Origin: a virus | DNA: 64,000 nt | Direction: 5' to 3' (one strand) | Virus record (IMG/VR): IMGVR_UViG_3300022694_000001 | In this document: one piece after another, positions 42,905-60,097 of the stretch | How the letters are laid out: every line of letters begins with the position of its first letter | How positions within the stretch are numbered: the stretch's first letter is position 1 | Position numbers and translations under genes: made by a program | Notes under the pieces: model-generated | Seen by the model: only the letters and a program-made list of their open reading frames with translations | Told to the model about the DNA's origin: nothing | The model's database searches: none

Positions 42905-45900
42905 ATGGCTGATGAGAATGACGAGCAGCAGCCAGAGCCGCCGGTAATCAACCGGGAGATCGGTCAGAATCCCCTAGTTCCGAGCGCGCCGGCAGACGCC
43001 GAAGAGGCCGCGCCGTTATCGTCGTTCATTCCTCCGGATCAACCTGCGCCACGGGTAATCGTGTTACCGCGGCCACGGCGACAAGGACCGTTGTATCCGC
43101 GCGACAGAATCAATCCGAGTTGGCATCCGAGGGATCGGGCGCCGAAGTACGGGCGTGCTGTAGATCAATTTGATGAAGCGGCCATGTACCGCGAGCAGCA
43201 TCCAGTCGAACGGGATCCAGAGACGGGTGCACTGCGACCGATGCGCGCTGATCAATATCGTCCCGGAAAAAACGTCATTAGTTACGACCAGCAGGGGCGC
43301 CCGAAACCCTTCGATATAGAGGACATGTACCGTGAGGAACAGGGGCAACGGACGAAATTAAACCGTGAAGCCGCGCAGACGTTAAAAGAAGCGCATGTTC
43401 AACTCGAGCGAGATCCGGACACGGGGGTAGTTAGCCCGGTACGCGACGATTCCGGCAACATTCAATATCGTCCGGGGAAAGGCGCGGTCAGTTACGACCA
43501 GCAAGGGCGCGCCATTCAAACACAGTACGACACCAGCGGTCCGAAGCAGGTGGAATTGGATAAGGACTCGGAGATTGGGCCAATCGAAGGGCGACCGCCT
43601 AACGAGCTTTACAAGCAGAACAAGTATTCCCCTTTTGAATACGTCGGCACGATTGATGAAGGCCTGAAACATTCGGACAAGAACATTCAGCAGGCTGCAC
43701 AAACGGCAAAATTGAAGCTGGAACACCGATTGCACGCCGCGGTGGCTAACGACCTGGGCCAGACAGTCAGCGAGCAATCGTTAGTGGTCCAGGGAAAGAT
43801 CAGCGATTTCAAGAGTAAGGGGAAATTACTCGGGCAGTTGAGTCAGCAACTCGATAATTTCGACGCTGAACATCCGGGCATTACCGAAACGGAAGGCGGT
43901 TTTCTGGGGATGGGCGCGCGGCCTAGTCAGACGGCGACAACGTTGCAGGCGCAAAAGGCTGATTTGCAAAAGCAGATCGAAGATTTACAAGGGCAAGGCT
44001 ATTCGACGGACCCGAAGGCGGTAACTGAGTTCACAAAAACCGATCGTGAATCGTTGGCGGCAACGCGCGCGGTGCACGGGGAGTGGTCGTCTGGCACACC
44101 GAAGGAACCCGGCGATTTTGACAGGCTGATTGACAGGCGCAAAGCGATCTTGGCCGAGCAAGGCGTTGACGTGGGCGAAGATCCAATTTTGCAATCGCTT
44201 GAGAAACGGCGCGCGGAGCTTGGGGTTGGAGCGCCGACACCGAAAGATCACGCGGCGGAGGATGAACTGCGCAAAGACGCTACGTTTGGGCCGTTACTGC
44301 AGGAGCGCGACCAGTTGCACTCCGCGCATGAGGCTGCCAGCAACGAGTTGCAAGGTATTCAGGACGAATACGACAAAGTGATCGGTCCGGTCCGCGAACG
44401 ATTGCGCGTGGGCCAGGCGCAGATCGCGCCGATACAAGCCGAAGTCGAGGCTTACAGCCACAAACTCGATCAGGTGCTAGGGATGCCGACGCCAGCGGCG
44501 GGCGACGAACAGGCGCTTGCGGCGCGTGAAGCTGAGTGGAGCACTCGAATCTCGCAGTTGACCGATCCGCGACAAAAAGCGCGGGTGCAAACAGTGTTGA
44601 ACGCTCTGGAGCCTGCAAAACAGCAACTCAGGATGGCGCAAGCGCAGTTGCAACCGGTGCAGGATACGCATGACGCGCTGGTAGAAGAGAACCAGCGGAT
44701 GATCGCGGACCGCCATGCGCAATTTGAGAACGAGTTGGGGCCGCAGAGAGAGGATCTGCAGGCGCGAATGGGTGCTGCGCATCAGCAACGGACCGTGACT
44801 GAGGCTGTGCGTAAAAGCGATGTGCTCGCAAACGTGCTTGGGCCGTTAATGGTGAACCCTAACGACCCAGGGTTTACGCCGTCGTTAGTCCAATCGATTC
44901 AAGAAAATTTAGATCGCCGGAAGCAGGAAGCGATCAAGTCTTGGGATTTTGAGCCAAACGATTTCGAGCGGGAATTATTCGGTGCGCCGTTTCGCATGGT
45001 CGGGGAAGGCTTAAAAGGCTTCGCGCATCTCTCTGAAGGTTTGTTAAAGCTGTTCCCGCAGGAAAAGAACGTTTCTGATCACGAGCAACACGCGGTCTTA
45101 ACCCGATGGGTGGCTGACCAACTTCTGAAAGTGCCAGGGGTGCTTTCGACGCCGCAAAGCGAGAAATCGTTAGCCGGCAAGGCTGGTGGATTTATCGGGG
45201 GCGTTGCTGGCGCAGTCGGCGCGGGGTTAATCGACCCGGCGATATTGGTGCCACAGTTTTTCGGTCAAGGTGTCAACGGTCAGATGGAAGCGGCGAAGCA
45301 AGCGGGAGCTGACGACGCGACGGCGCTAAAGGCTGGTGTTCTCGGTGGCACAATCAACGCGCTTCTGGCAATTCCGTTCGAAGGATTCGGTAAGGCGCTC
45401 ACGGAGACGTTTGGCAGCGCGAAACAGAGCGCGATTCAGAAAGCGTTAAAGGAATCATACGAGCGCGGAGGCGCGGAAGCTGTTGCCAATGATTTAACGA
45501 TTCTGCGTAACTCGATGATAAAAACCGCCGGGCGGTCCGCGTTTCAAAAGACTGCCGTGGATGCGTTGCAGCCCATCATTGAAGAAATCACCAAAACACC
45601 GTTGCAACGGGCGGGACAGGTTGGAATCGAAGTGCTAAAAGATAGCGCGCTTTTTGCCGGCGTTCAGGCAGCTCAAAACGCGGTTACAAAGACGTACAAT
45701 CCGGACACCGGGCTTTTCGAGAATGTTCCGACAGCGGCCTTTGAAGGCGGAGTGCTTGGGGCGTTCTTTGGTGGGTTACGGCAGGTTGGCCGGGCGCAAA
45801 AGGCTGGGGCGGCACGTGAAGAAATTGCGACTGGCTTGGCGAAACAGGCGCGTGCTGGCGAAGTGCAGCCGATGGGTGTGGAGAGAGCTTTGCCGGAGAC

Positions 45901-48900
45901 GGGGGTTACGGAGGGGCCGACCGAAACGCATGAACAGGCTTCTCGTAATGCTGGGGTTAGTCCGGTTGAAGGTGTTGATGAAGCGGGCCAAGGGCCAGGA
46001 CCGATCGAACAGGCGCACGGCGAGATAAACAATCTTGTGGTGCCGGATGTGTCGCCGGCTGTGAATACGGCGACGCAACATGCGTTGCGCGGGCTGATCA
46101 AAATTGCCAACGGCGAATCGATGGAAGCGTTGACCACGGCAGAAAAGGCGGCGGTGAACGCAAAGACGACCGATGGATTGCCTCGAGTTGTGATGGTGAA
46201 AAGGGCTGACGGCAAACAACAGCCGGTTATCACGGACGCGACGCTCGAACGGATCCGGCAGATTGCGCCGGTTACTGCACAAGTGATGCCGCAGAGCGAG
46301 GGTGAGCAACGGCAGCGGATACTTAATCCTGTTGAAGAAATAACGCCGGAATCTGGTTCAGTTGAAAAGGGAGAGATTCAACCAAACAAGAAAACTCCTG
46401 AGATTTCTCAACCGAGCTTCGAAGTGGCCATTGAGCGGCCGAGTGGCGAAGTGGAGACGCGGACGGTGCAGGCTGCGAGTGCAGAGGCCGCAAAGGGACA
46501 GGTCGCTGGTTCAATTTCTCCCGGACAGGGGATGGTGCGCGATGTTTCCGAAGTTCCACAGGCGATGTCCGGTTTTGTCCCCTTAGATGAGGGGCAAAAA
46601 ATGGACACGGCTACAGCCTTGTCGGATGAGATGGTGGGCCAGGTGCGGGAGCAGGCTGGCCGCGAGCTCCAACCGGAAGAGGAGCAGGCGGTGCGCGGTA
46701 TCGCGGAACGCGTTACGCCTGCGATTGAGAAGTTTCGAGGGGCGTTCAGTTCGATTCAGGCCACGCTTGAGCCGCGGGGGTCGATGGGTGCGTTCACGAC
46801 TATTCCCGAAGGTAAATTAGTGCTTTCGCTGCCGGACATTGTGCGGCACGCGCAGGAATGGGGCGAGCCGGAAGGTCCGGACCTGGTTGTTGAACAGGAA
46901 GCGATTCATGCGGTCGCGGACCAACTGCATCAGCAGGGCAAGATCGATCCGGAAGGTATTGCGCGCGATATGCCCGCTGAACTGCGGGAGCATGTGGCCG
47001 GCGTTTACAACCCGGACGTTCCGATGGAGGAGCGGAATGATCTCGAGGACGGCCACGAATTTTTGCGCTTACTGGTGCAACACCAGTTGAGAGTGGACGA
47101 AGGCAAAGTGGTCGATGCCGACGGGAAAGTAATCACCGAAAACTTGTCGCCTGGCTTTATCGCACGGATCCGGCAGGCGTTGGTGCGCTTGTTCGAAGTG
47201 TTTCGGGACATGGCGAAACGGCTCGGGGAGATGGGCGCGAAACCGGAGTACGTCGAGCAGGTGCAAAAAGCGCGGGATTTAATCGTTACCCGATTAAGAG
47301 AAGTTGACGCTGGCAGCCGCGGTGCGTATGAGACAACCAATGGCGGTAAGACGGCTCAGGTCAAAGGTAAAGGTGGTAAAGCTCCCGCAGAACGATCTGT
47401 GGAAGGGGAATTACGTGTCGAGCCTAAGCCGACAGCAGGCCAGGGACAAGTTGCGGGTGCTGGTGTTGGTGGAGCAGTTGGACAACCACATGGAGTCATG
47501 TCGGCTGCGACGAAAACTCTTACTGGCCAGGCTGGATCAGGTGCCGGAGCGGAACTGACCTCCAAGGAGATCGCTCAGGCGGCAATCGCGATTGGTGCTC
47601 CTCGGGATAAGATTACAAAACCGTGGTGGGATAAGGTCGGCAATAAGCACGTTCTCTCTCAGGGTGGGCGCTCGGTGAACGTGGCGTATGTTGCCCAGGA
47701 AGCCAGCAAGGGGCGCACGTCGCATGACGCGCTGGGTAATGCGTCGTCCGGTTACGATCTGAGTTTGCAGCCGCGTGACCGGAGCTTGGCGCAGTACCGG
47801 AAGCAATCGCAAAATATCGCGCAGAATTTGGACTTTGCGCAGGCGGCTTTCTTTCCCGAAACGACTACGCCGGCGACGACGGGCGACATCGGCGCGCCAG
47901 TGATGACGCCTACGGGAGACACGCTGATTGGGAACGGACGCGAGATAGGGATTAAAGCTGCGTACGCTGCGAACAGCCCGCAGGCGCGCGCTTACAAGCG
48001 AGATTTTGTGCATAACGCTGCCAGGTTCGGGATTGACCCTGCCGCTGTGATGAAGATGCGGCAGCCGGTGTTGAAACGGGTGATTCTGGATGATTTGCCG
48101 AAGGACGAGCTGATCAGGCTCAGCCAGGAATCCAATGAAGGCGTGGCGATGGGTGTGAACGCGACTGAGATCGCGAATCGCGACGCGACGCGGCTGACTC
48201 CTGAGATACTTTCCGAGTTTGATCCGAATTACGCGCTGGACGCGGCGAAGAATCGCGGGTTTTTGCGGAGTTACCTGCAGAACGTGGTCAGCGGCGCGGG
48301 CGCGAACGAGGCAAATATCAACTGGCCGGACCTTGCGCGGCGGGTGCGCGCTGCGGTGTTCACGTATGCGTATGGCGCGGATGAAGCGGGTCGGGCCGCG
48401 CTCGAGCGGTTACAAGGCGAAGACTCGAGCCGCAAAATCACGGACGGGCTTTTAACGGTGGCGCCGATCGTGGCTCGGATGAAGGCCGATATTGCCAGTG
48501 GCGATTTGTTTCCGCTGGATATTTCTCCGGAAATCGCGCGGGCGGTCCAGGATATTTCGGAGGCGCTTCGGGACAGGCCGAAAGGACAGAGCGCGAGCGT
48601 GGCGTTGGATGGGCTTGTTGCGCAGGGCGAGTTAATTCCGGCAGGCGACGCGCCTGCCCTACAACAATCGGTTCGTGATTTTGTGATTGCGAACCGCGGG
48701 AACCGGGCGGCGATCGAGGAGGCGTTGAGCAATTACGTCGAATCGGTGTATGAGATTGGGAATCCGAAGCAGCCGAACTTGTTTGGTGAACAGGCGGGAG
48801 AAGAATCGGATCGGACGCAACTTTGGAATTTAGCGACCAAGCCAGAAGCGATTGCGCCGAAGACAGAGCAGAGAGAACTTGCTGCGCAAGCTCTCAGAAG

Positions 48901-51900
48901 TCGGATGTCAGAGGACAGAGGGCAGCTTACGCCTCTGGATCACGTGATTCATCGGAAACTACGTGCCGGAAAGAGCGTGGAAACGGTCGCGAAAGAACAC
49001 GGCATGAAAGTGGAGCATGTCGAGCGGACTTATGACCGGGTGAATCGATCCCAGGAAATTCGAACTCTCCTATCACAACAAACATTTCGATCTGAAACCG
49101 ATGCTTTTGCTGCGGCAGAGAAGGCTAAACCGAGTTTCGATCAGACATTGGAAGACGTAGCTAAGGCTACCGGGGCGCGCGCAATGACTACGCCAATCAA
49201 GAGCAGGGAGCGCGCTGCGGCGAAGGTGGCGGCAGATTACAGGGGCGATTGGAGCAAGATCAAAGATTTGGTTCGCGGAACGATTGTGGTGCGCGATCTC
49301 GACCAGGCGAAGGCAGTCGTCGGAGCGTTGGCGCAACGGTTCGGAGTGGAACCCAAGCGTGACTTCAATCAGCCGTTACAGAGCGGCTACAGGGACGCTT
49401 TGTTTAATCCGATTATCAATGGCTACGTCGCCGAGATTCAGGTTCATATCGAACCGATCATTCACGCGAAAAGCACGTCGCACACATTTTACAAAAGACA
49501 TCAAGAAATTCAGCGCGCTGCGCAGGTAGAAAATCGTGCGTTAAACAGCCAGGAACTTCGGACTATCGAGCGTCTTAATATGGCGCAGCAGAGAATTTAC
49601 GCGGCGGCTTTCGGCAACATCTCGGGAGAGATCAGTTCGACGGCATCTGAAGGCTTGCAAGGAAAGGCACCGACCGATTTGATTTCTTCTGGCGTTATTG
49701 GTCGCGGAGAATCGCCGTCGAAAGCCCAAGCGGTCCCGTCCTTATCTACCACGATTCCGAAGCCGGCGGGGGCTTCCATGAAGGATTTAGCGTCGGGGAA
49801 GGCGGCGATTGCTTCTTCGTCTGTCATTCCACCTTCTCTTACACCGACTGGTGGTGTTCGTCATCAAGAAGTTTTGCTGGCGCAGAAACTCAAAGACACT
49901 GGGACGCTAGACCTATTCGGGGATTACGTGGGCGCGTTGCCGGCGGCGGCGAAAGCGAGTAAACCGGCGCTCAAACGCGAGGTTGAAAAGGATGTGCCGA
50001 GCCTTGCGGAGAGCGGGGCGGCGCTGAGCAATCTTTTTGAGTTGGCGCAGCCGGGGAAGACCTATGAGGTTTCTAACCCAGTCCAATTCCCGAAAGTTCT
50101 TTCGGCTACGAGATACAGTGACTCGACTGTTGCGAAGGTGGCACATAACTATGTTACCCACCAAACGGAATACGGATACCGTGTCGAGCTAGAGGATGGG
50201 CGTCAGTGGATCGGTTCGGCCAAGAATCGAGACGCAGCCATCACGAAAGCGCAATACGAGTTTCGAAAAACGTTGACGGAAGCGCCTGCGGCGGGTATTC
50301 CACAGGCAAATGAAGACGCAGTTCGAAAAACCGCCAGAGCTAACCGAAAAGCGAAGGTTGGCACTGAGACAGCAACCGGAGTGGATGACTTGTTTTCGCT
50401 CCTGGCTGAACAGCACGGATCCGAGCGAGATACGGGATTGGCTGGGGGGGTCGTACAAGACGCTATTGGAGCACCTGGACGAACTGACGTGGCGGGTGCT
50501 GGCGATCTACCTGGACACGAAACAGACGCCGGACGACCTGGCGGAAGCGTTACGGCAGGAGATACCGATGGAGGACGAGGACTCGCAGAACCCACTGACA
50601 CCGGAGGAAACGCAGCGCCTAGTGAAACTGGCGGAAAGCGCACACTTCCCAAGTTAGTTAGTCGGCCCGCGGACCCGAACGCTCGGAATTACGTCATTCC
50701 GCGCGACACAAAAGAGATTGCTCCACGCGGAGCGATGGCCAAACTGCGCGCCAATCAGGACGCGATCAAGTTACTGAAACAGATCGAGACCGAACAGCGT
50801 CTCGCGACTCCTGAAGAAAAATCGCAACTGGTCAAGTATTCGGGTTGGGGCGCGCTCTCCCAGGCGTTCGATGACGCAAAGGCGGATCGAATTGCCGCTG
50901 GTGAGATCTCGGAACTGAATACCGAGCTGCAACGTTATCGTGGCTACCAGGAGAGGAATCGCGAGTCCAGTTATTACAGCGGCGAGATTGGGCGACTAGA
51001 AAAAGACATCCGCAGCCTTGAAAGCTGGCAAAGCAAGTGGGGCGACATTCACTCCGAACTAAAGTCGATGCTCACCCCGGACGAATACAAGCGCGCGATG
51101 CGAAGCACGATCAACGCGCATTATACCTCTCCAGAGATGATCAAGTCCATGTGGGACATTGCCGCGCATCTCGGATTCAAGGGCGGTAACGTGCTCGAGC
51201 CCGGCGCCGGTATCGGTCATTTCTTTGGGCTTATGCCGGAAGAGCTTTTATCCCGGTCCAGTCTTCATGCAGTAGAGCTCGACGACATTAGCGGCCGGTT
51301 GACCAAGATGCTTTATCCGGAGGCCGACGTGCAAATCACTGGCTTCCAAAACGCGGACATCGCCGATGGGTCAGTGGACCTGTCGATTTCAAATGTGCCT
51401 TTCGCGAATGTGCCGGTCACGGACAAGGCGATGGAACTCTCCGGCGGGCCTACGGATAACCTGCACGATTATTTCCTGGCCAACATGATCAAGAAGTTGC
51501 GCCCCGGCGGATTAAACATCGCTATTACAAGCGCGTTCACGATGGACAAGGGCGCGAGCGAAAACCGAAAATGGATGGCAGACCGCGCGGACCTGGTAGC
51601 GGCGTTCCGGTTGCCGAACAACGCTTTCAAGGCCAATGCAGGCACGGATGTGGTGACTGATATTTTGGTGTTTCGCAAAAAAGATGGACAGATTTTTCCG
51701 CACGCGAAGGATTGGACGATGCTGGATAACGCTACGACACAAAAAGGCGATCCGATTCGGGTAAACCAATATTTCGCGCAGCATCCACAGGATATTCTTG
51801 GGTTCCTGGCAGACGACGGCGAGATGTTCGCGCACGGCGCCGGCGAAAAAGAGATGACGGTGCACGCGGACCCAAACCGGCCGCCTGCGGTGGCGCTGGA

Positions 51901-54900
51901 GCAAGCCATTGACAATTTACCGAAGGACATCGCAGGCGACGGGAACGCGGCCGAAGTGCGCAGCAACGATCCGACCATCTCGAAGATGGGGAATATCGTG
52001 GAGAAAGACGGCAAGTATTTCTTCCACGGGCAAGCGGAGCCGGACGAGGCGTTGAATGATCCTAAGAACGCGAAGCGAGTTCGAAAGTTTATTGAGACGC
52101 GCGACGTTTTGAATGAGCAGTACCGGCTGGAACTGGATCCGGAAGCGACCGACGAAGATGTTGAAGCTAATCGTCGGATGTTGAACGCGCGTTACGATTC
52201 GTTCACCGCCGATTTCAGTAATTTTCATACTCCGAAAAACAAAGGGCTATTCATTGACGATCCGGATTGGTTCCGGTTGGCCGGCGCGGAGACACCGATT
52301 CAGGTTTCAGGCGGCGTTAAAGAGATGTTGTCGATTTTGGACGGCAAAAAGAGCCGACAATTTACAAAGGCCGACGTGTTCAAGAAACGCGTGCTTACGC
52401 CGATCATTGAACCCACGAAAGCTGACAGTCTAGAAGACGCTTTCGGAATGAGTCTCGGTTGGCGCGGTCGCGTGGACCTTGGCTACATTTCGGATTTAAC
52501 CGGCCAAAGCCGGGAACAAGTGGAACAAGGATTGGTCGCATCCGGCATCGTGGTGCGCGACCCAGAAAACGGGCAACTTCAATCTCGCGAGCAATACCTG
52601 GCTGGCAATGTGCGTAAGAAACTCGACATCGCTAAAGCCGCAGGCCCGGATTACGAGCGCAACGCTCAAATGCTAGAGGCGGTTCAACCGGAGGACGTGC
52701 CAATCGACGAAATCCGGTTCAAGATCGGCGCGACATGGGTGCCAGTGGACGCTTACCAGCAATTCCTGAGCACGATCGGGATTGAGTTACCCATTGAATA
52801 CCACACAGCTCTCGCCGGCGGGCGCGACTTTTACACCGTAGGCTTGCGTGATTACCGTGCGACCGGTGTAGCGCACAAAGATTTCAGGACAGACCAGGTG
52901 AGTGTGCCTGAGTTGATGGACTCGATGCTGAACATGAAGCGCATCGAGGTTCTCCACACCGACAAGGATCGAAAGGGTGATACCGATGAAGGCGCAACTA
53001 TGGCGGCTAGGGATGCGGGTAAACGGTTGAGTGACGCTTTTGTGGCTTACGCGAAAGGCAATGCGGAGCTTGGTCCGCGGCTCGCGCAAATCTATAACCG
53101 CGAGGCGAACGGGTTCGCGCAACGGACGTATGACGGACAATTCCTTACTCTCCCGTGGAAAAATAAGGATTTCGATCTTTTCCCCGACAAAAAGAACGTC
53201 ATTTGGCGCGCGATACAAGATCGATATGCACTAATTGCGTGGGGCGTTGGCGGCGGCAAAACAGTGATTGCGGCCGGGATCGCGCTTGAATTGCGTCGCC
53301 TCAAACTAGCGTTAAAGCCGATGGTGGTGGTGCACAACTCCACGCTGGAGCAGTACGCCGACGAGATTGCGGTGATTGCGCCGAGCGCCCGGGTATTGAT
53401 CGGACGCAAAGACGAACTCTCTGGCGCGAAACGGAAAGAGTTCCTGATGCGAATTGCTGCCGGCGACTGGGACGCGGTAGTTATCGCGCATAGCACCTTC
53501 GGATTGATCGAAGACGACCCAGTGTTTCAGACAAAACACATGGAATCGCTCGTGGACGAAGCGATGCAGAGTTTAACGGATCGCGGATACAACTCAGTCT
53601 CGGATGCCAAGAAATCGCGCGAACCCAGTGTGAAGCAACTAGTCAAGATGATCGAGCAGCTTGAGACGAAGATTCAGGCACTTTCCGAGCGAAAAACCGA
53701 CACGGGCCTCTTGAATTTCCAACAACTCGGCGTGGACGCGCTGATCGTGGATGAAGTGCACAAGTTTAAGAAAATGCCGTTCTCGACCAAGCTGGACGTA
53801 AAAGGCATCGACAGCGGCATGAGCCAGCGCGGTTACGCCATGTTGCTCCGAGCCAGGTCAATTCAGGAGCGTAACGGCGGCAAAAACGTGTTCTCGATGA
53901 CTGGCACGCCAGTCACGAATACGCTGGGGGAAATCTGGAACCAGGTAAGACTGGTGGCGCCGCATCTCCTGAAAGAATACGGCGTTGAAACGTTCGATCA
54001 ATTCGTCAGCAAGTTTGCCGAGGTCGAGACGATCAGCGAAGCCGGCCCGAGCGGTGAACGCAAGATGGTGGAGCGCCTATCGAAGATCGTAAACCTGCCT
54101 GAGTGGTCCACATTTTTCCGGCAAGCTGCCGACGTGAAACTGGGCGACGACATGGTGGTAAAGAATCGTCCGGGCATCAAAGGAGGCGGCGGACAACTGA
54201 TCGCGCTGGAGCGCACACCTGGCACGGCCGCGTGGGTTAATTATATCCGCAACGTGCTCGAAGGGTTCAAAGAGCTAAAATACGACGATTTTAAGGATAA
54301 TAAGAGCCTGTTTGCTGTGCCGGTGCAGGCTTACATCGCGAGCCGAGCCGCAGCGATCGACATTCGGTTGATCGAACCGCGCGCCAAAGATGAGTCGGGC
54401 AGTAAGGCTAACAGGGCGGTTCGCGGCATAATCAAACTCTATCGAGAGACCACGCCATACAACGGGACACAGGTGATCTTCTCCGACTCGTTCAACCAAG
54501 TCAAAACCAGTTTGTTTGATGCCGTGGTGCCACGGTCGAATCTCAACCTAGAGCTCGACCCCAGTAAACCGCCAGGAACGACATTTAATCTTTACGAAGA
54601 CATCAAGGCGAAACTGATAGCTCTCGGCGTGCCGGCGGAAGAAATCGCGATTGTTGCCGACAAAGAATTTGATAATGCCAAGCGAAAAAAATCACTCTTC
54701 GAGGATGTGAATAAGGGCAAGGTTCGCATCGTGATGGGCAGCACGGAGAAACTCGGCACCGGCGTCAACATGCAGGAGCGGATGCTTGCGGCGTGGAACC
54801 TGGACGTTCCGTGGACAGCCGCAGGGTTAGAGCAACGCGACGGGCGCGTGTATCGGCAAGGCAATGTGCACGCGGAGATGGGCGTACCCGTGGAATTGAC

Positions 54901-57900
54901 GCGGTTGGGAATGAAAGACACGCTGGATGAATCGCTCTGGAAAATTATTGAGCGCAAACTGCGGATCCAGAAACAGGCGTTAAGCGGTAAGATCGTGGGG
55001 CGCGAACTCGAAGAGATGAGCGATGTCCTGAGTCTCGCGGAGCAAGCCTCGATTTTAAGCGGCCCATACGGAGCCGAGAGTTTCGAGCTGGATAGCCGGA
55101 TTCGGGAATTAGAAGGGAGCCGGGCCGGGCACGACCGTCAAGTTGCAAACCGAGATTCGGAGATCAGGTCGTCGAAAGAATGGCTGCGCCAGCAGGAAGC
55201 CGAAGAGGCGCGGTCTGAGCCGGCGATGCAGTTAATGGCAAAACTCGGTGAGCGCGTCTCGAAAGACGGTGCTCAGATCACGGTAGATGGCGATTCGTTT
55301 GAGACTAAGACGGCGATGGTGGAGCGTGTGAACGCGTTATTGGACGCGGAGAAAAACAAACCGACCAACGAAAAAAGCAAAGCCATTTTCTCAGTGGCGG
55401 TCAACGGCGTTCCGGTGCGGTTGGATGTTACTCCTACAGAATATGACGAATGGGATGTTGCGGGTGTAGAAAGCAAGAGGGTAACGAAACCGTCCGCGCA
55501 GTTCGATCTGATGGCGACGGATTCCAATAGCCCGAAATTCGGGCGCGTAACCAGCGCGGCGACGCTGTTGGCGCGCCTCGAGGAATTAAGCGGGACGGTG
55601 GACGGAATCAGGGAAGGCCGAAAGAATAACACGGCGCGATTACGGCAACTGGCCGAGATGCAGCAATTGGGTAAATGGCCGTTTAAAGAGGAATACCAGA
55701 GAGCACTTGCGCGACAGAAAGAGCTTTTGAAGCTGATGCGCGGGGAAGAACTCAAAAAAACAGGAGAAGGAGAAGAAACGCCGAACGCTCAACGCCCAAC
55801 GCCCAACGCTCAACCGGCAGAATTGCGAGCACAGGCGACGGCGGATGCTGCCAAGACGCCGGCGGAACGGTTTAAGGATGCGTGGCCGTTGGCTGAATCG
55901 ATTGCACGCTCGTATTCGAATATCCCCGGCGTGACGCTGAAGGACGTGGAGCAACATGCCCGGATTGCTCTGGTGCGCGCGGCGCGTGAGTTTGATCCTG
56001 CTCGCGGGGCCGCAATGGACACGTTTGCGCGCAAAGTGGTCGGGAATGAGTTGCGCAGTCTTTACGGCAGGCAGATGCGAACGGCGGGGCGGGAATCGAC
56101 GGTGCTGGATGTTCCCGTCTCCGCCGAAGGCTCTGCCGCGGTTTCACAAAAAGAAAACATCGTCGGGCCGAGCGATGTTCGGGCGGACGTGGCGCGGACT
56201 GAGGCGACACAAATGCTTTCGACCGCGATTGACGAGTTGCCGGACAAAATGCGAGACGTGATGAATGGAATCTTGTCCGGGAAAGAGACGCTGGGCGAGA
56301 TCGGGGAACGGCTTGGCGGATTACCGAAACAAGCCGTAGGCCGGCTGGCGAGTGCGGCTATGCGCCGGTTGAAAGGGAAACTTGGTGAGAAAGGCGTTTC
56401 TGGTGTGACGGATCTGTTGAGTCAGGAAACGACCACGGATAACACGGATACGGAGAAAAAGACGTTATCGGATTTCTTGGCGAAGCATGATGCGTCGAAG
56501 GGCACCGTTCCCGCTAAAAAGATAGCTGAGCCGACTAGGAGGAATGTTAAGTTAGCTGAGAAGCTCGGAAATCAATCAACGAGAGACTCGTCTGTTGTTC
56601 CTAATTTTCGGCCTGTGGAGCAGGAAATCGCGATTGGAAGGGCTTATGGCTACAGCGATAACGACATCGCAGCATACTTGCAGCGCAATTACGTGGATCG
56701 AATACCCGAACGTGTTGCGCAAACGTCTGTAGGCGTTCGACCACCGCAGGAGCTAATTGACAAGTATCCAGAGTTAAAACACGCCATTAAAGTTTCCGAG
56801 AAATATGGGCATTTAGTGAAACTCAGCGAGCAACTGGAACTACTGAGTCAGGTCGTCGAGGATGAAGTGAAGCTGTCTGAATCGGCTGATCCGGTGGCGT
56901 CGTTCATGGAGCTTATGCGGGATGATCCGGTTGAGAAGTTGCGCGGTATAAAAGGCATTGGGCGGCCTGATCTGGCGCTGGGCGCGGAGCCTGCCATGCG
57001 GCCGGTGCACGAGTTTCATACTGCCACGGCTACGCCGCAAAAACTGGATGATTGGGACAAACAAGGCGAAGCGATTTTGCGCAGCCGCGGCGACAAATTG
57101 CCAGCGGATGTTACTAAACGTTGGCTGGATGGCTCAGTGCTCGAGCCCGCGGAAGTGCGCGCGACACAGCAATATCTCATCGAAAAACAGGGGCAACCGA
57201 AGACGCCAGAGGAACAACGCGGGTATGACGCGTTGGCGTACGCTTATACCAAGATCGGGGAAGCGACCGCACGGGCGTTGTCTGCGCGCCGTGATCCGTT
57301 CAAAACGCCGGAGGAGAGGAACCGTGAATTTATCGGGAAAGCTCTTGTGCATTTGTCGGCTACTGAAGATCGCGAACTGGACGCGATTGCCGATCACAAG
57401 GAGAAAGTGGCGCGCTTGGAGCAGATCGTTCAGGGGCGACGCACTCAGATCAACGCGGCGCTGGAGCATGTCGCCGGAAAGGGCGTGACGATTGACGATA
57501 TTTTGTCCGGCGGCACGGAATTGCGGTTAAAAGGCGCCAAAATGATCGAGAATCAGATGGCGGGTTACGGCGAATCGGAAAAGAAAGTGATCAAGCTGGC
57601 GCAGACCGGGGCGCGCAGCGCTGCGGAGATTGCGAAAGCGACAGGGCTCAGCGTCAAACAGGTCAACGACATCAACGACCAGTTCGTATCCGATCTGGAA
57701 ACGAAATTGATGGCTAAGACTCGGGCCGGGGCGACGCTTGAGAATTTGGATGCGCAGCAGATTGCACTTTTGGCGCAGGAGACGGAACGGCGGCCAGGGG
57801 CCTCCGCTACAGTATCCGAAGACGTTGCTCGCGCTGAGGCGCGAAAAATGATCAAGGCGATGGGGTTTGTGGCGAGCAAGGATTTGGGCACGATGAAAGT

Positions 57901-60097
57901 GGTTAGGCGGAAGCGATCGAAATTGTTTATTCCTCCTTCGCCAAGACCTGCGGCCGACACGGCCGCCCCTACACCTGGTGAGTTGCCTACGGGACAAGAG
58001 ACGCAGGCTCCGATGATGTTTGGCGGTGAGCGCAGTCCGGTGGCGCCGCGCGAAGGTGAGTTGCCGCGTCCGGCAGGACAGCAAGCGCCTTACACCGGAC
58101 GCGTGCTGGGGCAGATCGGGTTGCCGCTTTATCAGGAAATGATGATTCGTAAAGGAGCGGACATGAGTGAGCCGACTGACGTGGCGCGGCTTGGGAACGT
58201 GATTCACGCGGCAACGAGCGGGAACGCGTTCGACATGGTTTATGAAGCGTGGATTAACAACATTCTTTCGGGGCCGGCTACGCACATGGCGAACATTACC
58301 GGCAACGCGGTCTCTACGGCGTGGGATTTTAGTTTACAACGCGGTTTGGAGTCGTTGGTGAACCTGGCTTATCGCGACGCGGATTCGGCGCAGCTCGGGG
58401 AGTTTAAGCATATCGTGAACGGCATTGTGCCGGGGTTGCGTCGCGGGTTGTCGATCGCGGTCAAGGCGTGGGGCGCAGAAGCCGATTTCTTCCGGAACGA
58501 CGTGCTCAATGAGCAGGTGGAAATGTTCCAGGACTTCGAGAAAGGATCAGGCGGCGCTCTTGGTCCTGCTATTCCCGGCCGGACCGGACGCGTGATCAGG
58601 ATGCCGGGACGCGCGCTGATGTTCATGGACGCGGCGTTCAAGGGGTTAATCGGGCAAATGGAAGCAGGCGCGGTCGCGTATCGGATCGCGAAGCGCGAAG
58701 GGTTGACCGGCGACGCGATGGCCACGCGTATGAACGAACTGGTCGCCACACCGAACAGCGAAGCGTGGCAGCGCGCAGTGGATAAAGCTGTAAACCTCAC
58801 GTTCCAAGATCAGATGCGAACCAAAGAAGAGGGCGGCAACCCGTTTGAGAACGCCGTTGCGCGGTTTAACCAGATGCGGACCGGCAGCCATTTGCTGGGG
58901 TTCTTTTTCCCGTTTATCCGGACGCCATACAACATTTTCAAGATGGGCCTGCGCAAAACGCCATTGGGCAGCGCGAACATGGCCTGGCGCTTTTCGAAAG
59001 CGGGTTTTTACCGGTTCAAGGATGGCAAGCCGATGTTCGAAAGCTACGATAAAGGCGAGCAGGTGAGGCATTTGGCGGAGCAATTGATCGCATGGGCGAC
59101 GTTCGCTGCGCTCTGGGCGGCGACGACCGGCGATGATGACGATGACAAAAAAGCGTTGCTCTTTACCGGGTCCACGCCGGTAACGGAAGTAAGGCGCAGT
59201 GAACGCGAGTTGAGGACGCGGTTGCACGGCGGGCAGTACCAGATTCGGGTAGGCGGCCGCAACGGTGTTTACATCAATTACGGGCGTTATGAGCCGTTCG
59301 CGACGGTGATCGGGACTGTGGTGGACGCGATTACGAACCTCAAAAAGATCAAGCGCGGCCAGACGCTCGGTGAAAGTCTGGACGCGATGTACGGTTATTT
59401 TCTGGCACAGGCGAAATCGAAAACGTTTTTACAGGGGTTTGCCGAGATTGCGGACTCGCTCGAGAGCGGCGGTGGCGTTAGGGGTGGCATCACTGAGGCG
59501 GGCAAAAAGATGTTGTTAAGCGCGCTAGTGCCGAATCTCGTCAGGCAACCGTTACGCAACCTCGATGAATGGGTGCGCGACACGAAAGGCGCTGCACCCA
59601 TTTACCAGATGCTTCCCGCGGGTTCGTTAGCGGAAAGGAAAGCTGATCTGTGGGGGCGCGACGTGCAAAAGAGCGGAAACATCTTCAGCAGGTTATTCCT
59701 GGCGACCGGGACAAAGGTTGAGCCGGACGCGCAAAAGGTAGATTTGCTGTTGCAGAATTGGGTTCATCAAAACCCGGGTGGGGCGCGCGAATTGAGCGTG
59801 CCGTCGAGCGCGATCAACAGGACGTACAAGGACGCGATCGGTAAAGAAGCGCAAATGACACCCGAGCAGTTTCACCGGTTTACGGTGGACTCCGGGAAAC
59901 TGGCGCTAACTCGGTTACGGGGGAAATTCACGCAACGTCAGATCGATCATCCGAAGGCGGAAGATGTGAAGATGATTCGGGGCGCGCTGGAAGATGCGCG
60001 GCGTGAAGTGAAAGAGCGGATGTTTCCGGCGGGACCACGCGGCTTCGGGCATCCACGGCAGGCGATTAACTTACGCGAAGTGATGTGGGCCGCATGA
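42905..60097 (+). CDS. 5730-aa polyvalent virion protein: ejection-like N-terminus, degenerate zincin, ddrB-type ParB, HTH, RelA/SpoT-like, DarB-like N6-MTase + SNF2 helicase, sigma-70-like, HTH, internal-virion C-terminus
   Basis: EQEAIHAV; YDLSLQPRDR...LIGNGR; KSRERAAAK/DLVRG/GYRD/EIQ; VLEPGAGIGHF, SNVPF; GVGGGKT, DEVHKFK, STEKLGTGVNMQ, EQRDGRVYRQGN; FDPARG and region-4 HTH; AWINNILSGPATH. Confidence 0.9.
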   Translation: MADENDEQQPEPPVINREIGQNPLVPSAPADAEEAAPLSSFIPPDQPAPRVIVLPRPRRQGPLYPRDRINPSWHPRDRAPKYGRAVDQFDEAAMYREQHPVERDPETGALRPMRADQYRPGKNVISYDQQGRPKPFDIEDMYREEQGQRTKLNREAAQTLKEAHVQLERDPDTGVVSPVRDDSGNIQYRPGKGAVSYDQQGRAIQTQYDTSGPKQVELDKDSEIGPIEGRPPNELYKQNKYSPFEYVGTIDEGLKHSDKNIQQAAQTAKLKLEHRLHAAVANDLGQTVSEQSLVVQGKISDFKSKGKLLGQLSQQLDNFDAEHPGITETEGGFLGMGARPSQTATTLQAQKADLQKQIEDLQGQGYSTDPKAVTEFTKTDRESLAATRAVHGEWSSGTPKEPGDFDRLIDRRKAILAEQGVDVGEDPILQSLEKRRAELGVGAPTPKDHAAEDELRKDATFGPLLQERDQLHSAHEAASNELQGIQDEYDKVIGPVRERLRVGQAQIAPIQAEVEAYSHKLDQVLGMPTPAAGDEQALAAREAEWSTRISQLTDPRQKARVQTVLNALEPAKQQLRMAQAQLQPVQDTHDALVEENQRMIADRHAQFENELGPQREDLQARMGAAHQQRTVTEAVRKSDVLANVLGPLMVNPNDPGFTPSLVQSIQENLDRRKQEAIKSWDFEPNDFERELFGAPFRMVGEGLKGFAHLSEGLLKLFPQEKNVSDHEQHAVLTRWVADQLLKVPGVLSTPQSEKSLAGKAGGFIGGVAGAVGAGLIDPAILVPQFFGQGVNGQMEAAKQAGADDATALKAGVLGGTINALLAIPFEGFGKALTETFGSAKQSAIQKALKESYERGGAEAVANDLTILRNSMIKTAGRSAFQKTAVDALQPIIEEITKTPLQRAGQVGIEVLKDSALFAGVQAAQNAVTKTYNPDTGLFENVPTAAFEGGVLGAFFGGLRQVGRAQKAGAAREEIATGLAKQARAGEVQPMGVERALPETGVTEGPTETHEQASRNAGVSPVEGVDEAGQGPGPIEQAHGEINNLVVPDVSPAVNTATQHALRGLIKIANGESMEALTTAEKAAVNAKTTDGLPRVVMVKRADGKQQPVITDATLERIRQIAPVTAQVMPQSEGEQRQRILNPVEEITPESGSVEKGEIQPNKKTPEISQPSFEVAIERPSGEVETRTVQAASAEAAKGQVAGSISPGQGMVRDVSEVPQAMSGFVPLDEGQKMDTATALSDEMVGQVREQAGRELQPEEEQAVRGIAERVTPAIEKFRGAFSSIQATLEPRGSMGAFTTIPEGKLVLSLPDIVRHAQEWGEPEGPDLVVEQEAIHAVADQLHQQGKIDPEGIARDMPAELREHVAGVYNPDVPMEERNDLEDGHEFLRLLVQHQLRVDEGKVVDADGKVITENLSPGFIARIRQALVRLFEVFRDMAKRLGEMGAKPEYVEQVQKARDLIVTRLREVDAGSRGAYETTNGGKTAQVKGKGGKAPAERSVEGELRVEPKPTAGQGQVAGAGVGGAVGQPHGVMSAATKTLTGQAGSGAGAELTSKEIAQAAIAIGAPRDKITKPWWDKVGNKHVLSQGGRSVNVAYVAQEASKGRTSHDALGNASSGYDLSLQPRDRSLAQYRKQSQNIAQNLDFAQAAFFPETTTPATTGDIGAPVMTPTGDTLIGNGREIGIKAAYAANSPQARAYKRDFVHNAARFGIDPAAVMKMRQPVLKRVILDDLPKDELIRLSQESNEGVAMGVNATEIANRDATRLTPEILSEFDPNYALDAAKNRGFLRSYLQNVVSGAGANEANINWPDLARRVRAAVFTYAYGADEAGRAALERLQGEDSSRKITDGLLTVAPIVARMKADIASGDLFPLDISPEIARAVQDISEALRDRPKGQSASVALDGLVAQGELIPAGDAPALQQSVRDFVIANRGNRAAIEEALSNYVESVYEIGNPKQPNLFGEQAGEESDRTQLWNLATKPEAIAPKTEQRELAAQALRSRMSEDRGQLTPLDHVIHRKLRAGKSVETVAKEHGMKVEHVERTYDRVNRSQEIRTLLSQQTFRSETDAFAAAEKAKPSFDQTLEDVAKATGARAMTTPIKSRERAAAKVAADYRGDWSKIKDLVRGTIVVRDLDQAKAVVGALAQRFGVEPKRDFNQPLQSGYRDALFNPIINGYVAEIQVHIEPIIHAKSTSHTFYKRHQEIQRAAQVENRALNSQELRTIERLNMAQQRIYAAAFGNISGEISSTASEGLQGKAPTDLISSGVIGRGESPSKAQAVPSLSTTIPKPAGASMKDLASGKAAIASSSVIPPSLTPTGGVRHQEVLLAQKLKDTGTLDLFGDYVGALPAAAKASKPALKREVEKDVPSLAESGAALSNLFELAQPGKTYEVSNPVQFPKVLSATRYSDSTVAKVAHNYVTHQTEYGYRVELEDGRQWIGSAKNRDAAITKAQYEFRKTLTEAPAAGIPQANEDAVRKTARANRKAKVGTETATGVDDLFSLLAEQHGSERDTGLAGGVVQDAIGAPGRTDVAGAGDLPGHETDAGRPGGSVTAGDTDGGRGLAEPTDTGGNAAPSETGGKRTLPKLVSRPADPNARNYVIPRDTKEIAPRGAMAKLRANQDAIKLLKQIETEQRLATPEEKSQLVKYSGWGALSQAFDDAKADRIAAGEISELNTELQRYRGYQERNRESSYYSGEIGRLEKDIRSLESWQSKWGDIHSELKSMLTPDEYKRAMRSTINAHYTSPEMIKSMWDIAAHLGFKGGNVLEPGAGIGHFFGLMPEELLSRSSLHAVELDDISGRLTKMLYPEADVQITGFQNADIADGSVDLSISNVPFANVPVTDKAMELSGGPTDNLHDYFLANMIKKLRPGGLNIAITSAFTMDKGASENRKWMADRADLVAAFRLPNNAFKANAGTDVVTDILVFRKKDGQIFPHAKDWTMLDNATTQKGDPIRVNQYFAQHPQDILGFLADDGEMFAHGAGEKEMTVHADPNRPPAVALEQAIDNLPKDIAGDGNAAEVRSNDPTISKMGNIVEKDGKYFFHGQAEPDEALNDPKNAKRVRKFIETRDVLNEQYRLELDPEATDEDVEANRRMLNARYDSFTADFSNFHTPKNKGLFIDDPDWFRLAGAETPIQVSGGVKEMLSILDGKKSRQFTKADVFKKRVLTPIIEPTKADSLEDAFGMSLGWRGRVDLGYISDLTGQSREQVEQGLVASGIVVRDPENGQLQSREQYLAGNVRKKLDIAKAAGPDYERNAQMLEAVQPEDVPIDEIRFKIGATWVPVDAYQQFLSTIGIELPIEYHTALAGGRDFYTVGLRDYRATGVAHKDFRTDQVSVPELMDSMLNMKRIEVLHTDKDRKGDTDEGATMAARDAGKRLSDAFVAYAKGNAELGPRLAQIYNREANGFAQRTYDGQFLTLPWKNKDFDLFPDKKNVIWRAIQDRYALIAWGVGGGKTVIAAGIALELRRLKLALKPMVVVHNSTLEQYADEIAVIAPSARVLIGRKDELSGAKRKEFLMRIAAGDWDAVVIAHSTFGLIEDDPVFQTKHMESLVDEAMQSLTDRGYNSVSDAKKSREPSVKQLVKMIEQLETKIQALSERKTDTGLLNFQQLGVDALIVDEVHKFKKMPFSTKLDVKGIDSGMSQRGYAMLLRARSIQERNGGKNVFSMTGTPVTNTLGEIWNQVRLVAPHLLKEYGVETFDQFVSKFAEVETISEAGPSGERKMVERLSKIVNLPEWSTFFRQAADVKLGDDMVVKNRPGIKGGGGQLIALERTPGTAAWVNYIRNVLEGFKELKYDDFKDNKSLFAVPVQAYIASRAAAIDIRLIEPRAKDESGSKANRAVRGIIKLYRETTPYNGTQVIFSDSFNQVKTSLFDAVVPRSNLNLELDPSKPPGTTFNLYEDIKAKLIALGVPAEEIAIVADKEFDNAKRKKSLFEDVNKGKVRIVMGSTEKLGTGVNMQERMLAAWNLDVPWTAAGLEQRDGRVYRQGNVHAEMGVPVELTRLGMKDTLDESLWKIIERKLRIQKQALSGKIVGRELEEMSDVLSLAEQASILSGPYGAESFELDSRIRELEGSRAGHDRQVANRDSEIRSSKEWLRQQEAEEARSEPAMQLMAKLGERVSKDGAQITVDGDSFETKTAMVERVNALLDAEKNKPTNEKSKAIFSVAVNGVPVRLDVTPTEYDEWDVAGVESKRVTKPSAQFDLMATDSNSPKFGRVTSAATLLARLEELSGTVDGIREGRKNNTARLRQLAEMQQLGKWPFKEEYQRALARQKELLKLMRGEELKKTGEGEETPNAQRPTPNAQPAELRAQATADAAKTPAERFKDAWPLAESIARSYSNIPGVTLKDVEQHARIALVRAAREFDPARGAAMDTFARKVVGNELRSLYGRQMRTAGRESTVLDVPVSAEGSAAVSQKENIVGPSDVRADVARTEATQMLSTAIDELPDKMRDVMNGILSGKETLGEIGERLGGLPKQAVGRLASAAMRRLKGKLGEKGVSGVTDLLSQETTTDNTDTEKKTLSDFLAKHDASKGTVPAKKIAEPTRRNVKLAEKLGNQSTRDSSVVPNFRPVEQEIAIGRAYGYSDNDIAAYLQRNYVDRIPERVAQTSVGVRPPQELIDKYPELKHAIKVSEKYGHLVKLSEQLELLSQVVEDEVKLSESADPVASFMELMRDDPVEKLRGIKGIGRPDLALGAEPAMRPVHEFHTATATPQKLDDWDKQGEAILRSRGDKLPADVTKRWLDGSVLEPAEVRATQQYLIEKQGQPKTPEEQRGYDALAYAYTKIGEATARALSARRDPFKTPEERNREFIGKALVHLSATEDRELDAIADHKEKVARLEQIVQGRRTQINAALEHVAGKGVTIDDILSGGTELRLKGAKMIENQMAGYGESEKKVIKLAQTGARSAAEIAKATGLSVKQVNDINDQFVSDLETKLMAKTRAGATLENLDAQQIALLAQETERRPGASATVSEDVARAEARKMIKAMGFVASKDLGTMKVVRRKRSKLFIPPSPRPAADTAAPTPGELPTGQETQAPMMFGGERSPVAPREGELPRPAGQQAPYTGRVLGQIGLPLYQEMMIRKGADMSEPTDVARLGNVIHAATSGNAFDMVYEAWINNILSGPATHMANITGNAVSTAWDFSLQRGLESLVNLAYRDADSAQLGEFKHIVNGIVPGLRRGLSIAVKAWGAEADFFRNDVLNEQVEMFQDFEKGSGGALGPAIPGRTGRVIRMPGRALMFMDAAFKGLIGQMEAGAVAYRIAKREGLTGDAMATRMNELVATPNSEAWQRAVDKAVNLTFQDQMRTKEEGGNPFENAVARFNQMRTGSHLLGFFFPFIRTPYNIFKMGLRKTPLGSANMAWRFSKAGFYRFKDGKPMFESYDKGEQVRHLAEQLIAWATFAALWAATTGDDDDDKKALLFTGSTPVTEVRRSERELRTRLHGGQYQIRVGGRNGVYINYGRYEPFATVIGTVVDAITNLKKIKRGQTLGESLDAMYGYFLAQAKSKTFLQGFAEIADSLESGGGVRGGITEAGKKMLLSALVPNLVRQPLRNLDEWVRDTKGAAPIYQMLPAGSLAERKADLWGRDVQKSGNIFSRLFLATGTKVEPDAQKVDLLLQNWVHQNPGGARELSVPSSAINRTYKDAIGKEAQMTPEQFHRFTVDSGKLALTRLRGKFTQRQIDHPKAEDVKMIRGALEDARREVKERMFPAGPRGFGHPRQAINLREVMWAA
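47328..47558 (+). CDS. Nested +1-frame ORF inside the giant gene (76 aa)
   Basis: MRQPMAVRRLRSKVKVVKLPQNDLWKG...KLRVLVLVEQLDNHMESCRLRRKLLLARLD; third positions GC-rich in this frame, A/T-rich in the main frame. Confidence 0.5.
   Translation: MRQPMAVRRLRSKVKVVKLPQNDLWKGNYVSSLSRQQARDKLRVLVLVEQLDNHMESCRLRRKLLLARLDQVPERN
49597..49827 (-). CDS. Nested antisense gene behind the RelA/SpoT-like domain (76 aa), candidate immunity protein
   Basis: MTDEEAIAAFPDAKSFMEAPAGFGIVVDKDGTAWAFDGDSPRPITPEEIK...; purine-rich aagagaaggtgga before ATG; sense frame here is S/A/G/P-rich. Confidence 0.6.
   Translation of the reverse strand: MTDEEAIAAFPDAKSFMEAPAGFGIVVDKDGTAWAFDGDSPRPITPEEIKSVGAFPCKPSDAVELISPEMLPKAAA
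50310..50657 (+). CDS. Nested +1-frame ORF inside the giant gene (115 aa, or 90 aa from ATG 50385)
   Basis: ...IRDWLGGSYKTLLEHLDELTWRVLAIYLDTKQTPDDLAEALRQEIPMEDEDSQNPLTPEETQRLVKLAES; codons ctg gac gaa ctg acg tgg cgg gtg ctg gcg atc tac. Confidence 0.6.
   Translation: MKTQFEKPPELTEKRRLALRQQPEWMTCFRSWLNSTDPSEIRDWLGGSYKTLLEHLDELTWRVLAIYLDTKQTPDDLAEALRQEIPMEDEDSQNPLTPEETQRLVKLAESAHFPS
55777..55813. repeat. AACGYYS heptamer array inside the giant ORF
   Basis: aacgccg aacgctc aacgccc aacgccc aacgctc aa (TPNAQRPTPNAQ). Confidence 0.75.

Follow-up and report, generated by a model that had tools for sequence, protein, structure and literature searches.

The window analysed here, a stretch of 64,000 nucleotides from the IMG/VR virus record IMGVR_UViG_3300022694_000001, is phage DNA. 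It carries genes for a major head protein, a tail spike, a terminase, a DnaB-like helicase and a DNA methyltransferase, and its sequence is identical (100%) in three freshwater-sediment metagenome runs. On the plus strand lies a giant open reading frame (ORF) of 5730 amino acids (aa) (42905-60097, 17.2 kb), whose polyvalent product has ddrB-ParB, methylase, ResIII/SNF2 helicase and sigma-70 region 2 and region 4 domains. We studied a small ORF on the same strand (50310-50657) that is nested wholly within this giant ORF, in the +1 frame relative to the main frame. It is complete from ATG to TAG and would encode an acidic protein of 115 aa (pI 4.7) with six predicted helices.

In the main frame, the same segment (50309-50656) reads as a disordered linker rich in G, D, T, A and R, which keeps one short motif, G-x-D-L-F-S..A.QR.AER, near 50378-50425. 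Directly after the nested stop codon the conserved methylase region of the giant protein begins (50657-53194, plus strand; motifs RN..I and KLRAN..AI..LK). The alignment of this region (A5) has a mean column identity of 70%. The sigma-70 region 2/4-like domains of the giant protein occur in two sets, which makes it an unusually rich polyvalent virion-type protein.

An earlier note on this DNA had placed the ORF at 50310-50657, had given its product as 115 or 90 aa, and had described the start codon as hidden in the main-frame codons AAT-GAA (N-E); it was right on each of these points. The note had further read the linker as the shadow of a real small gene, with the guess that the product might inhibit or chaperone the adjacent DarB-like enzyme, and it had proposed to examine frame-specific codon usage, selection in homologues, and the homology and structure of the product.

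Its claim about composition was borne out: nowhere else in the giant ORF are base composition and codon usage in better agreement with the +1 frame than with the main frame. The GC contents at codon positions 1, 2 and 3 are.63/.44/.63 for the whole giant ORF. Over the nested region they are.73/.60/.41 in the main frame and.60/.41/.74 in the +1 frame, so that the latter is near genome-typical and the former is not. Among 57 bins of the giant ORF, main-frame GC3 reaches its lowest level (0.41-0.43) in the 300-nt bin at 50405. When codon-usage log-likelihoods were scanned in 1123 windows of 116 codons along the giant ORF, the +1 frame was favoured over the main frame only in windows starting at 50240-50420, with a minimum of -16.6 compared with a mean of +49.9 (standard deviation 12.5). 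The length of the ORF is unremarkable, as the giant ORF contains four same-strand alternative-frame ORFs of at least 100 aa.

A second in-frame ATG (M26, 50385-50387, plus strand) has a GGAG 3 bases upstream and would yield the 90-aa form. It is probably not the main start, because the 25 residues that precede it (LT..R..LR....W) are conserved throughout the family described below and an N-terminal M(K/Q)T is common to several of its members.

A family of small acidic proteins

A phmmer search with the +1 product (P0001) against 1.84 billion representative proteins returned 18 homologue clusters of small proteins, with E-values from 9e-42 to 2e-4, 31-67% identity and full-length alignments. 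The family shares the motifs LT..R..LR....W.TCF.SWL.S..PSE.R.WL, LL.HLD.LTW and D.AEAL and an acidic tail with PLT..E. The invariant or near-invariant residues W32, P38, D57 and E79 are all present in the window copy, which matches the family hidden Markov model (HMM) at 3.9e-44 (143 bits), the top score among the loci. All 24 members are acidic, with pI values of 4.0-4.7 (4.74 for P0001).

No family in Pfam, NCBIfam or PHROGs was assigned to the +1 product, and P0001 and 23 relatives gave no match to TnpV (Pfam PF14198, gathering score 27 bits) at E-values up to 1. A tblastn search of P0001 against 50,697 phage records returned a chance match only. Scans with the close sub-family A3 found no match in species genomes or IMG/VR, and a pattern scan of IMG/VR with the 267 aa upstream of the nested ORF found none either. 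Literature searches on TnpV, PLxRFG, DarB/Ulx and overprinting turned up no account of the nested gene.

Conservation of the nested position

The eight IMG/VR loci with the methylases most similar to that of the window (L001-L008; 50-57% identical over the query region) all have the family ORF. There the family HMM places it directly upstream of the methylase and always in the +1 frame relative to it. Only a few codons separate the ATG from a +1 stop before it, and the main frame runs open through the full 6.6 kb of each locus. The same nesting was found in five further loci, L028, L029, L034, L047 and L048, on the contigs of P0020, P0021, P0025, P0027 and P0029. Counting the window there are 14 nested loci, of which 13 are distinct, L004 and L005 giving identical results. 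The +1 frame is thus conserved among relatives, in the same frame and at the same place, in 12 further distinct metagenomic giant-gene loci. As the upstream modules and the methylase share one stop-free frame in every locus, the giant ORF must be continuous.

Copies also occur outside giant genes. In a stand-alone copy (P0028, locus L033) a GAGGAGG precedes the ORF, the -1 frame is closed both before and after it, and there is no methylase downstream. In two longer proteins encoded on bacterial contigs beside tyrosine integrases, P0017 (242 aa) and P0018 (206 aa), the family makes up the C-terminal half. DNA homology between the window and these islands is confined to 50331-50661 (L026) and 50326-50601 (L027), which corresponds to the small ORF and not to the flanks of the linker, and +1 position 3 is the least conserved in this comparison.

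Two further kinds of sequence were observed. In L045 (3-1136) and L046, which come from two samples, a truncated remnant of a giant gene, consisting of an upstream part, the linker and about 60 aa of the methylase, is followed by unrelated genes; the nested gene itself (P0024) is still intact in this remnant. Window positions 50295-50546 are matched at 93-100% identity by short contigs, which come from two soil metagenomes and a sediment RNA library. They cover only the N-terminal half of the nested ORF and match none of the adjoining giant gene over the 1.4 kb compared, which may point to extra conservation of the dual-coding DNA or simply reflect the shortness of the contigs.

Frame-specific conservation

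The reading frames were compared over ten nested loci, with six methylase-helicase segments as controls. Amino acid identity was highest in the +1 frame (39.5%); the main frame reached 30.3% and the third frame, with its 2-12 stops per sequence, 30.5%. At +1 codon positions 1, 2 and 3, nucleotide identity was.53/.60/.47, the usual pattern of coding DNA. By main-frame position it was.485/.542/.564, so that the main-frame wobble base is the most conserved, whereas in the six controls main-frame position 3 was the least conserved (.38-.46).

We also held the main-frame proteins fixed and resampled their synonymous codons. Main-frame conservation alone predicted a +1-frame identity of 18.2±0.7%, compared with 37.6% observed (z=28). 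In eight control segments the excess was at most.03-.08 (z from -2 to 10); their +1 identity never exceeded the main-frame identity, and off-frame identity never approached it.

Predicted structure

With the family alignment, AlphaFold2 (AF2) predicted a confident fold of six helices for the +1 product (mean pLDDT 88.4, pTM 0.79). The main-frame product, modelled with its own 11-sequence alignment (A6), was predicted to be disordered (pLDDT 50.3, pTM 0.17), with one helix at most, at the GDLFS motif. The fold of the +1 model matched nothing in the PDB with Foldseek at E<=0.001, and neither the ESM Atlas searched by shape (TM<0.5) nor the BFVD fold search gave a usable match. Atlas feature searches with P0001 and the N-terminus of P0017 returned nothing. 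In the wide VIA-align search the best Z was 4.6 and no DNA mimic was listed, a listing that does not rule out a mimic fold. When the small protein was modelled in complex with the 846-aa methylase region, the score was 0.14 (mark 0.32), which is evidence neither way.

Signals for expression

The family N-terminus aligns from the methionine onward and the ATG is conserved. In the window, a +1 stop lies 11 codons before the nested ATG; in relatives the distance is 1-14 codons. GGAG-type sites were found 6-9 nt upstream of 11 of the 21 nested ORFs that belong to the class of the window or to the sister classes described below. At the gene starts of the window, Shine-Dalgarno sequences are present in just 14 of 32 cases. 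A promoter scan and RNA folding around the nested start revealed nothing special.

The conserved methionine, the nearby upstream +1 stop and the GGAG-type sites suggest that translation is initiated independently at the ATG at 50310, and for the same reasons expression that depends on a frameshift is unlikely. The small protein would thus be made from the mRNA of the giant gene by its own initiation. A C-terminal extension produced by programmed frameshifting fits poorly with the upstream +1 stop and the conserved ATG of the ORF itself.

Other reading frames in the same slot

More distant IMG/VR relatives (L010-L025) have different +1 ORFs in the same place, with a weaker signal of selection (z=11 compared with 5.9 for the other off-frame). 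In addition, we found a well-conserved nested ORF at the same position under the DarB-like gene of nine cultured phages from eight host genera (Pavtok, PEp14, SopranoGao, Itty13, VvAW1, PBC5, POI1126, Mwe-JY07 and Atu_ph08), and it is annotated in none of them. The members of this cultured-phage class start with MNLNNW and share the motifs HWKEH.P..Y and YLFPPEE. Two plasmids have the equivalent ORF annotated as a gene of its own, upstream of the large one (the 'TnpV protein' of Paenarthrobacter pYJN5-3 and its equivalent in a P. fulva plasmid).

The sister-class ORFs resemble the nested ORF of the window in their +1 frame, their position just before the methylase and the open main frame, and their products are likewise helical and acidic, of about 100-130 aa, with a PLT/PEE-type tail. 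The cultured-phage class is not demonstrably related to the P0001 family (hhalign probability 0.4%), whereas the class formed by IMG/VR and plasmid sequences is possibly related to it (hhalign 60%, E 8e-5, 88 colinear columns). The sister classes overall scored 17.7-24.7 bits against Pfam TnpV, and the cultured-phage class 17.7-21.9 bits, all below the gathering score of 27.

Several annotations around these ORFs deserve mention. In the plasmid loci L030 (1364-1750) and L031 (1400-1804), the RefSeq methylase-helicase starts downstream of the small gene, and its frame stays open for about 460-550 nt ahead of the annotated start. Judged from the upstream translation, the large gene of the P. fulva plasmid (L031) appears to be annotated with a start that cuts into its conserved N-terminal region and removes the conserved motif ahead of the methylase domain. 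The plasmid small genes are probably nested too. In PBC5 (L041, 1-709), the upstream part of the DarB-like coding sequence (CDS) is in frame with the small ORF, and the methylase frame does not open until base 133; the layout stems either from a sequencing frameshift in an old record or from natural variation, with an N-terminal part that ends in the small domain. In Itty13 (L039), the region of the nested ORF and the methylase start is annotated with a single CDS, which runs on the opposite strand and looks like a mis-annotation of the giant gene.

An antisense reading frame in the giant gene

An antisense ORF of 76 aa is located in the giant gene (49597-49827, minus strand, ATG at 49827). 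Its product is 65-69% identical to the N-terminal part of P0017 and P0018, and the ATG marks the exact limit of this homology. A search for homologues among small proteins was negative for this product. The main frame over this ORF encodes a stretch rich in S, T, A and G that is unusually conserved in P0004, one of the closest giant relatives (P0003, P0004 and P0005, each of more than 5000 residues). The wobble positions of the two frames coincide, hence the substitution phase cannot tell which strand is selected. The antisense ORF could be a second hidden gene that is fused to the family module in the islands, the island genes could be rearranged relics of a giant gene, or the ORF could be a mere shadow.

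Homologues of the sense and the antisense ORF are joined on a single strand in P0017 and P0018, which on a wider reading would mean that both products exist and cooperate. On this reading the 'linkers' of giant polyvalent phage and plasmid proteins would not be spacers but small, pre-existing genes that are read in another frame, here represented by a sense and an antisense ORF. For example, the two hidden proteins might act as a two-part system that regulates or inhibits the injected methylase-helicase. We regard this wider proposal as rather doubtful.

Discussion

Overall, our data indicate that 50310-50657 is very probably a real, selected coding gene, nested on the same strand in the +1 frame of a giant polyvalent gene. 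The inference of the earlier note, that the linker is the shadow of a small gene, is supported by the homologues of the product, by the 12 further loci, by the excess of +1 identity (z=28), by the predicted fold and by the stand-alone copy. The checks that it had proposed agree with this: codon usage is genome-typical in the +1 frame and not in the main frame, substitutions among homologues are phased to the +1 frame, homologues of the product form 18 clusters (E down to 9e-42), and the product itself folds confidently into helices in the prediction.

Judged from the aligned sequences, the +1-frame DNA is under purifying selection, and the +1 protein is the dominant constraint on the segment. 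Since the giant ORF is intact through the nested region in every relative examined, the segment codes in both frames. Of the two readings the small gene is probably the older, because genome-typical codon usage and a predicted fold are found in the +1 frame and not in the main frame. It may once have stood before a methylase-helicase gene, and the giant gene would have been read through it in another frame when the upstream modules were fused.

Some observations weigh against a nested gene. An open +1 frame is in itself likely at this place, because the residues of the linker rarely use codons with T at position 2 and the +1 frame is thus readily open. Given the amino acid sequence of the linker, which is short of such residues, the +1 frame stayed open in 13% of the synonymous resamplings here and in 5-100% in relatives. 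The significance of the ORF rests on the comparative evidence and not on its being open. The nested ATG of the window has only an AGG at -6 and no good Shine-Dalgarno sequence. The sole signal from an RNA library is one contig of 151 nt (50317-50467), which is blind to frame and may represent DNA carry-over. Moreover, the main-frame motif GDLFS overlaps the most conserved +1 motif, W.TCF.SW, and some of the nucleotide conservation at this overlap may serve the main frame. Finally, the island copies in L026 and L027 could be rearranged relics and not working genes, because in them the family module is joined to a piece that is homologous to the antisense strand elsewhere in the giant gene; the case for the +1 ORF is independent of these copies.

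If these points were taken to their end, the ORF would be a by-product of composition: a linker poor in T at codon position 2 would leave the +1 frame open, its translation would be rich in L, E, K and Q and look helical, the product would not be made, and the conservation would merely echo the main frame. The ease with which the frame stays open (up to 100% of resamplings in relatives), the missing clear Shine-Dalgarno sequence of the window copy and a start with neither a promoter-like site nor special RNA structure would all fit. This is nevertheless extremely improbable, as the +1 identity is twice that predicted from the main frame and above the main-frame identity itself, the phase of substitutions is that of the +1 frame, the M(K/Q)T start is conserved, the +1 product folds confidently where the main-frame product is predicted to be disordered, and one copy exists outside any giant ORF. 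It is also highly improbable that the domain is reached by ribosomal frameshifting from the giant ORF, in which case the 115-aa domain would be the end of a truncated N-terminal product of about 2470 aa and would not exist as a free small protein. The domain does form the C-terminal part of the longer proteins P0017 and P0018, and the annotated upstream CDS of Sinorhizobium phage PBC5 ends at the stop codon of the nested ORF. Against this stand the +1 stop so close before the ATG, here as in relatives, an ATG that is always there, N-terminal residues conserved from the methionine on, and Shine-Dalgarno sites in many relatives. There is likewise very little to be said for the view that the family is real but the window copy is a decaying relic whose expression has been lost. 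The weak ribosome-binding site of this copy would fit such a view, as would the intact copy that the truncated giant-gene remnant in L045 and L046 still has. However, the ORF of the window is full length with W32, P38, D57 and E79, it has the best HMM score of all loci and genome-typical codon usage of its own, and its sequence is identical in three metagenome runs.

The position of the small gene before the methylase suggests, as a tentative proposal, that the protein works with or regulates the methylase-helicase, as an accessory protein, a chaperone or an inhibitor in the producing cell. A function independent of the giant protein seems to us somewhat unlikely; the small protein might, for instance, act against defence as an acidic, DNA-mimic-like protein or regulate the mobile element, and its gene would be lodged in the linker only because a second frame is tolerated there. 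All members are acidic (pI 4.0-4.7), the copies in L033, L026 and L027 lack an adjoining methylase-helicase, the DarB protein of phage P1 works without such a linker or ORF, and unrelated-looking small ORFs fill the same slot in other lineages. The copies outside any methylase-helicase context suggest that the protein can also act alone. On the other hand, the position right before the methylase is invariant in the 13 distinct loci and is found likewise in the phage and plasmid sister classes, and tolerance alone hardly explains such a regular placement.

Well-supported same-strand nested genes are rare outside tiny viruses, and here one is found in a 17-kb gene. The same slot is filled in cultured phages of Erwinia, Klebsiella, Pseudomonas, Vibrio, rhizobia and cyanobacteria and in plasmids. 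Hence, a conserved and unstudied partner or regulator of DarB-like anti-restriction proteins may have been overlooked. Annotation pipelines miss the nested gene, or shorten the start of the large gene to fit. Engineering or 'silent' recoding of such linkers would change a second protein.

Among known systems, phage P1 offers a comparable setting. Its DarB is likewise a phage methylase-helicase anti-restriction protein, accompanied by a small gene, ulx, of putative accessory role. P1 DarB differs in that it starts directly at the methylase domain and lacks both the linker and a nested ORF. The ulx gene lies apart, downstream, and its product has no similarity to the P0001 family (hhalign probability 0.2%). 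With DNA mimics of the Ocr/ArdA type the nested product shares its small size and strong acidity (pI 4.74). The arrangement itself recalls Rz1 in Rz, the spanin genes of phage lambda, and the genes B in A and E in D of phiX174, where a complete gene lies in a longer phage gene and both products are made. As in these cases, the nested ORF has its own start and stop and is located wholly inside a longer phage gene, on the same strand and in another frame. It differs from them in that its two products have no known partnership, in that the host gene measures 17 kb and carries the overlap in a disordered linker between domains, and in that the nested frame is apparently the older one.

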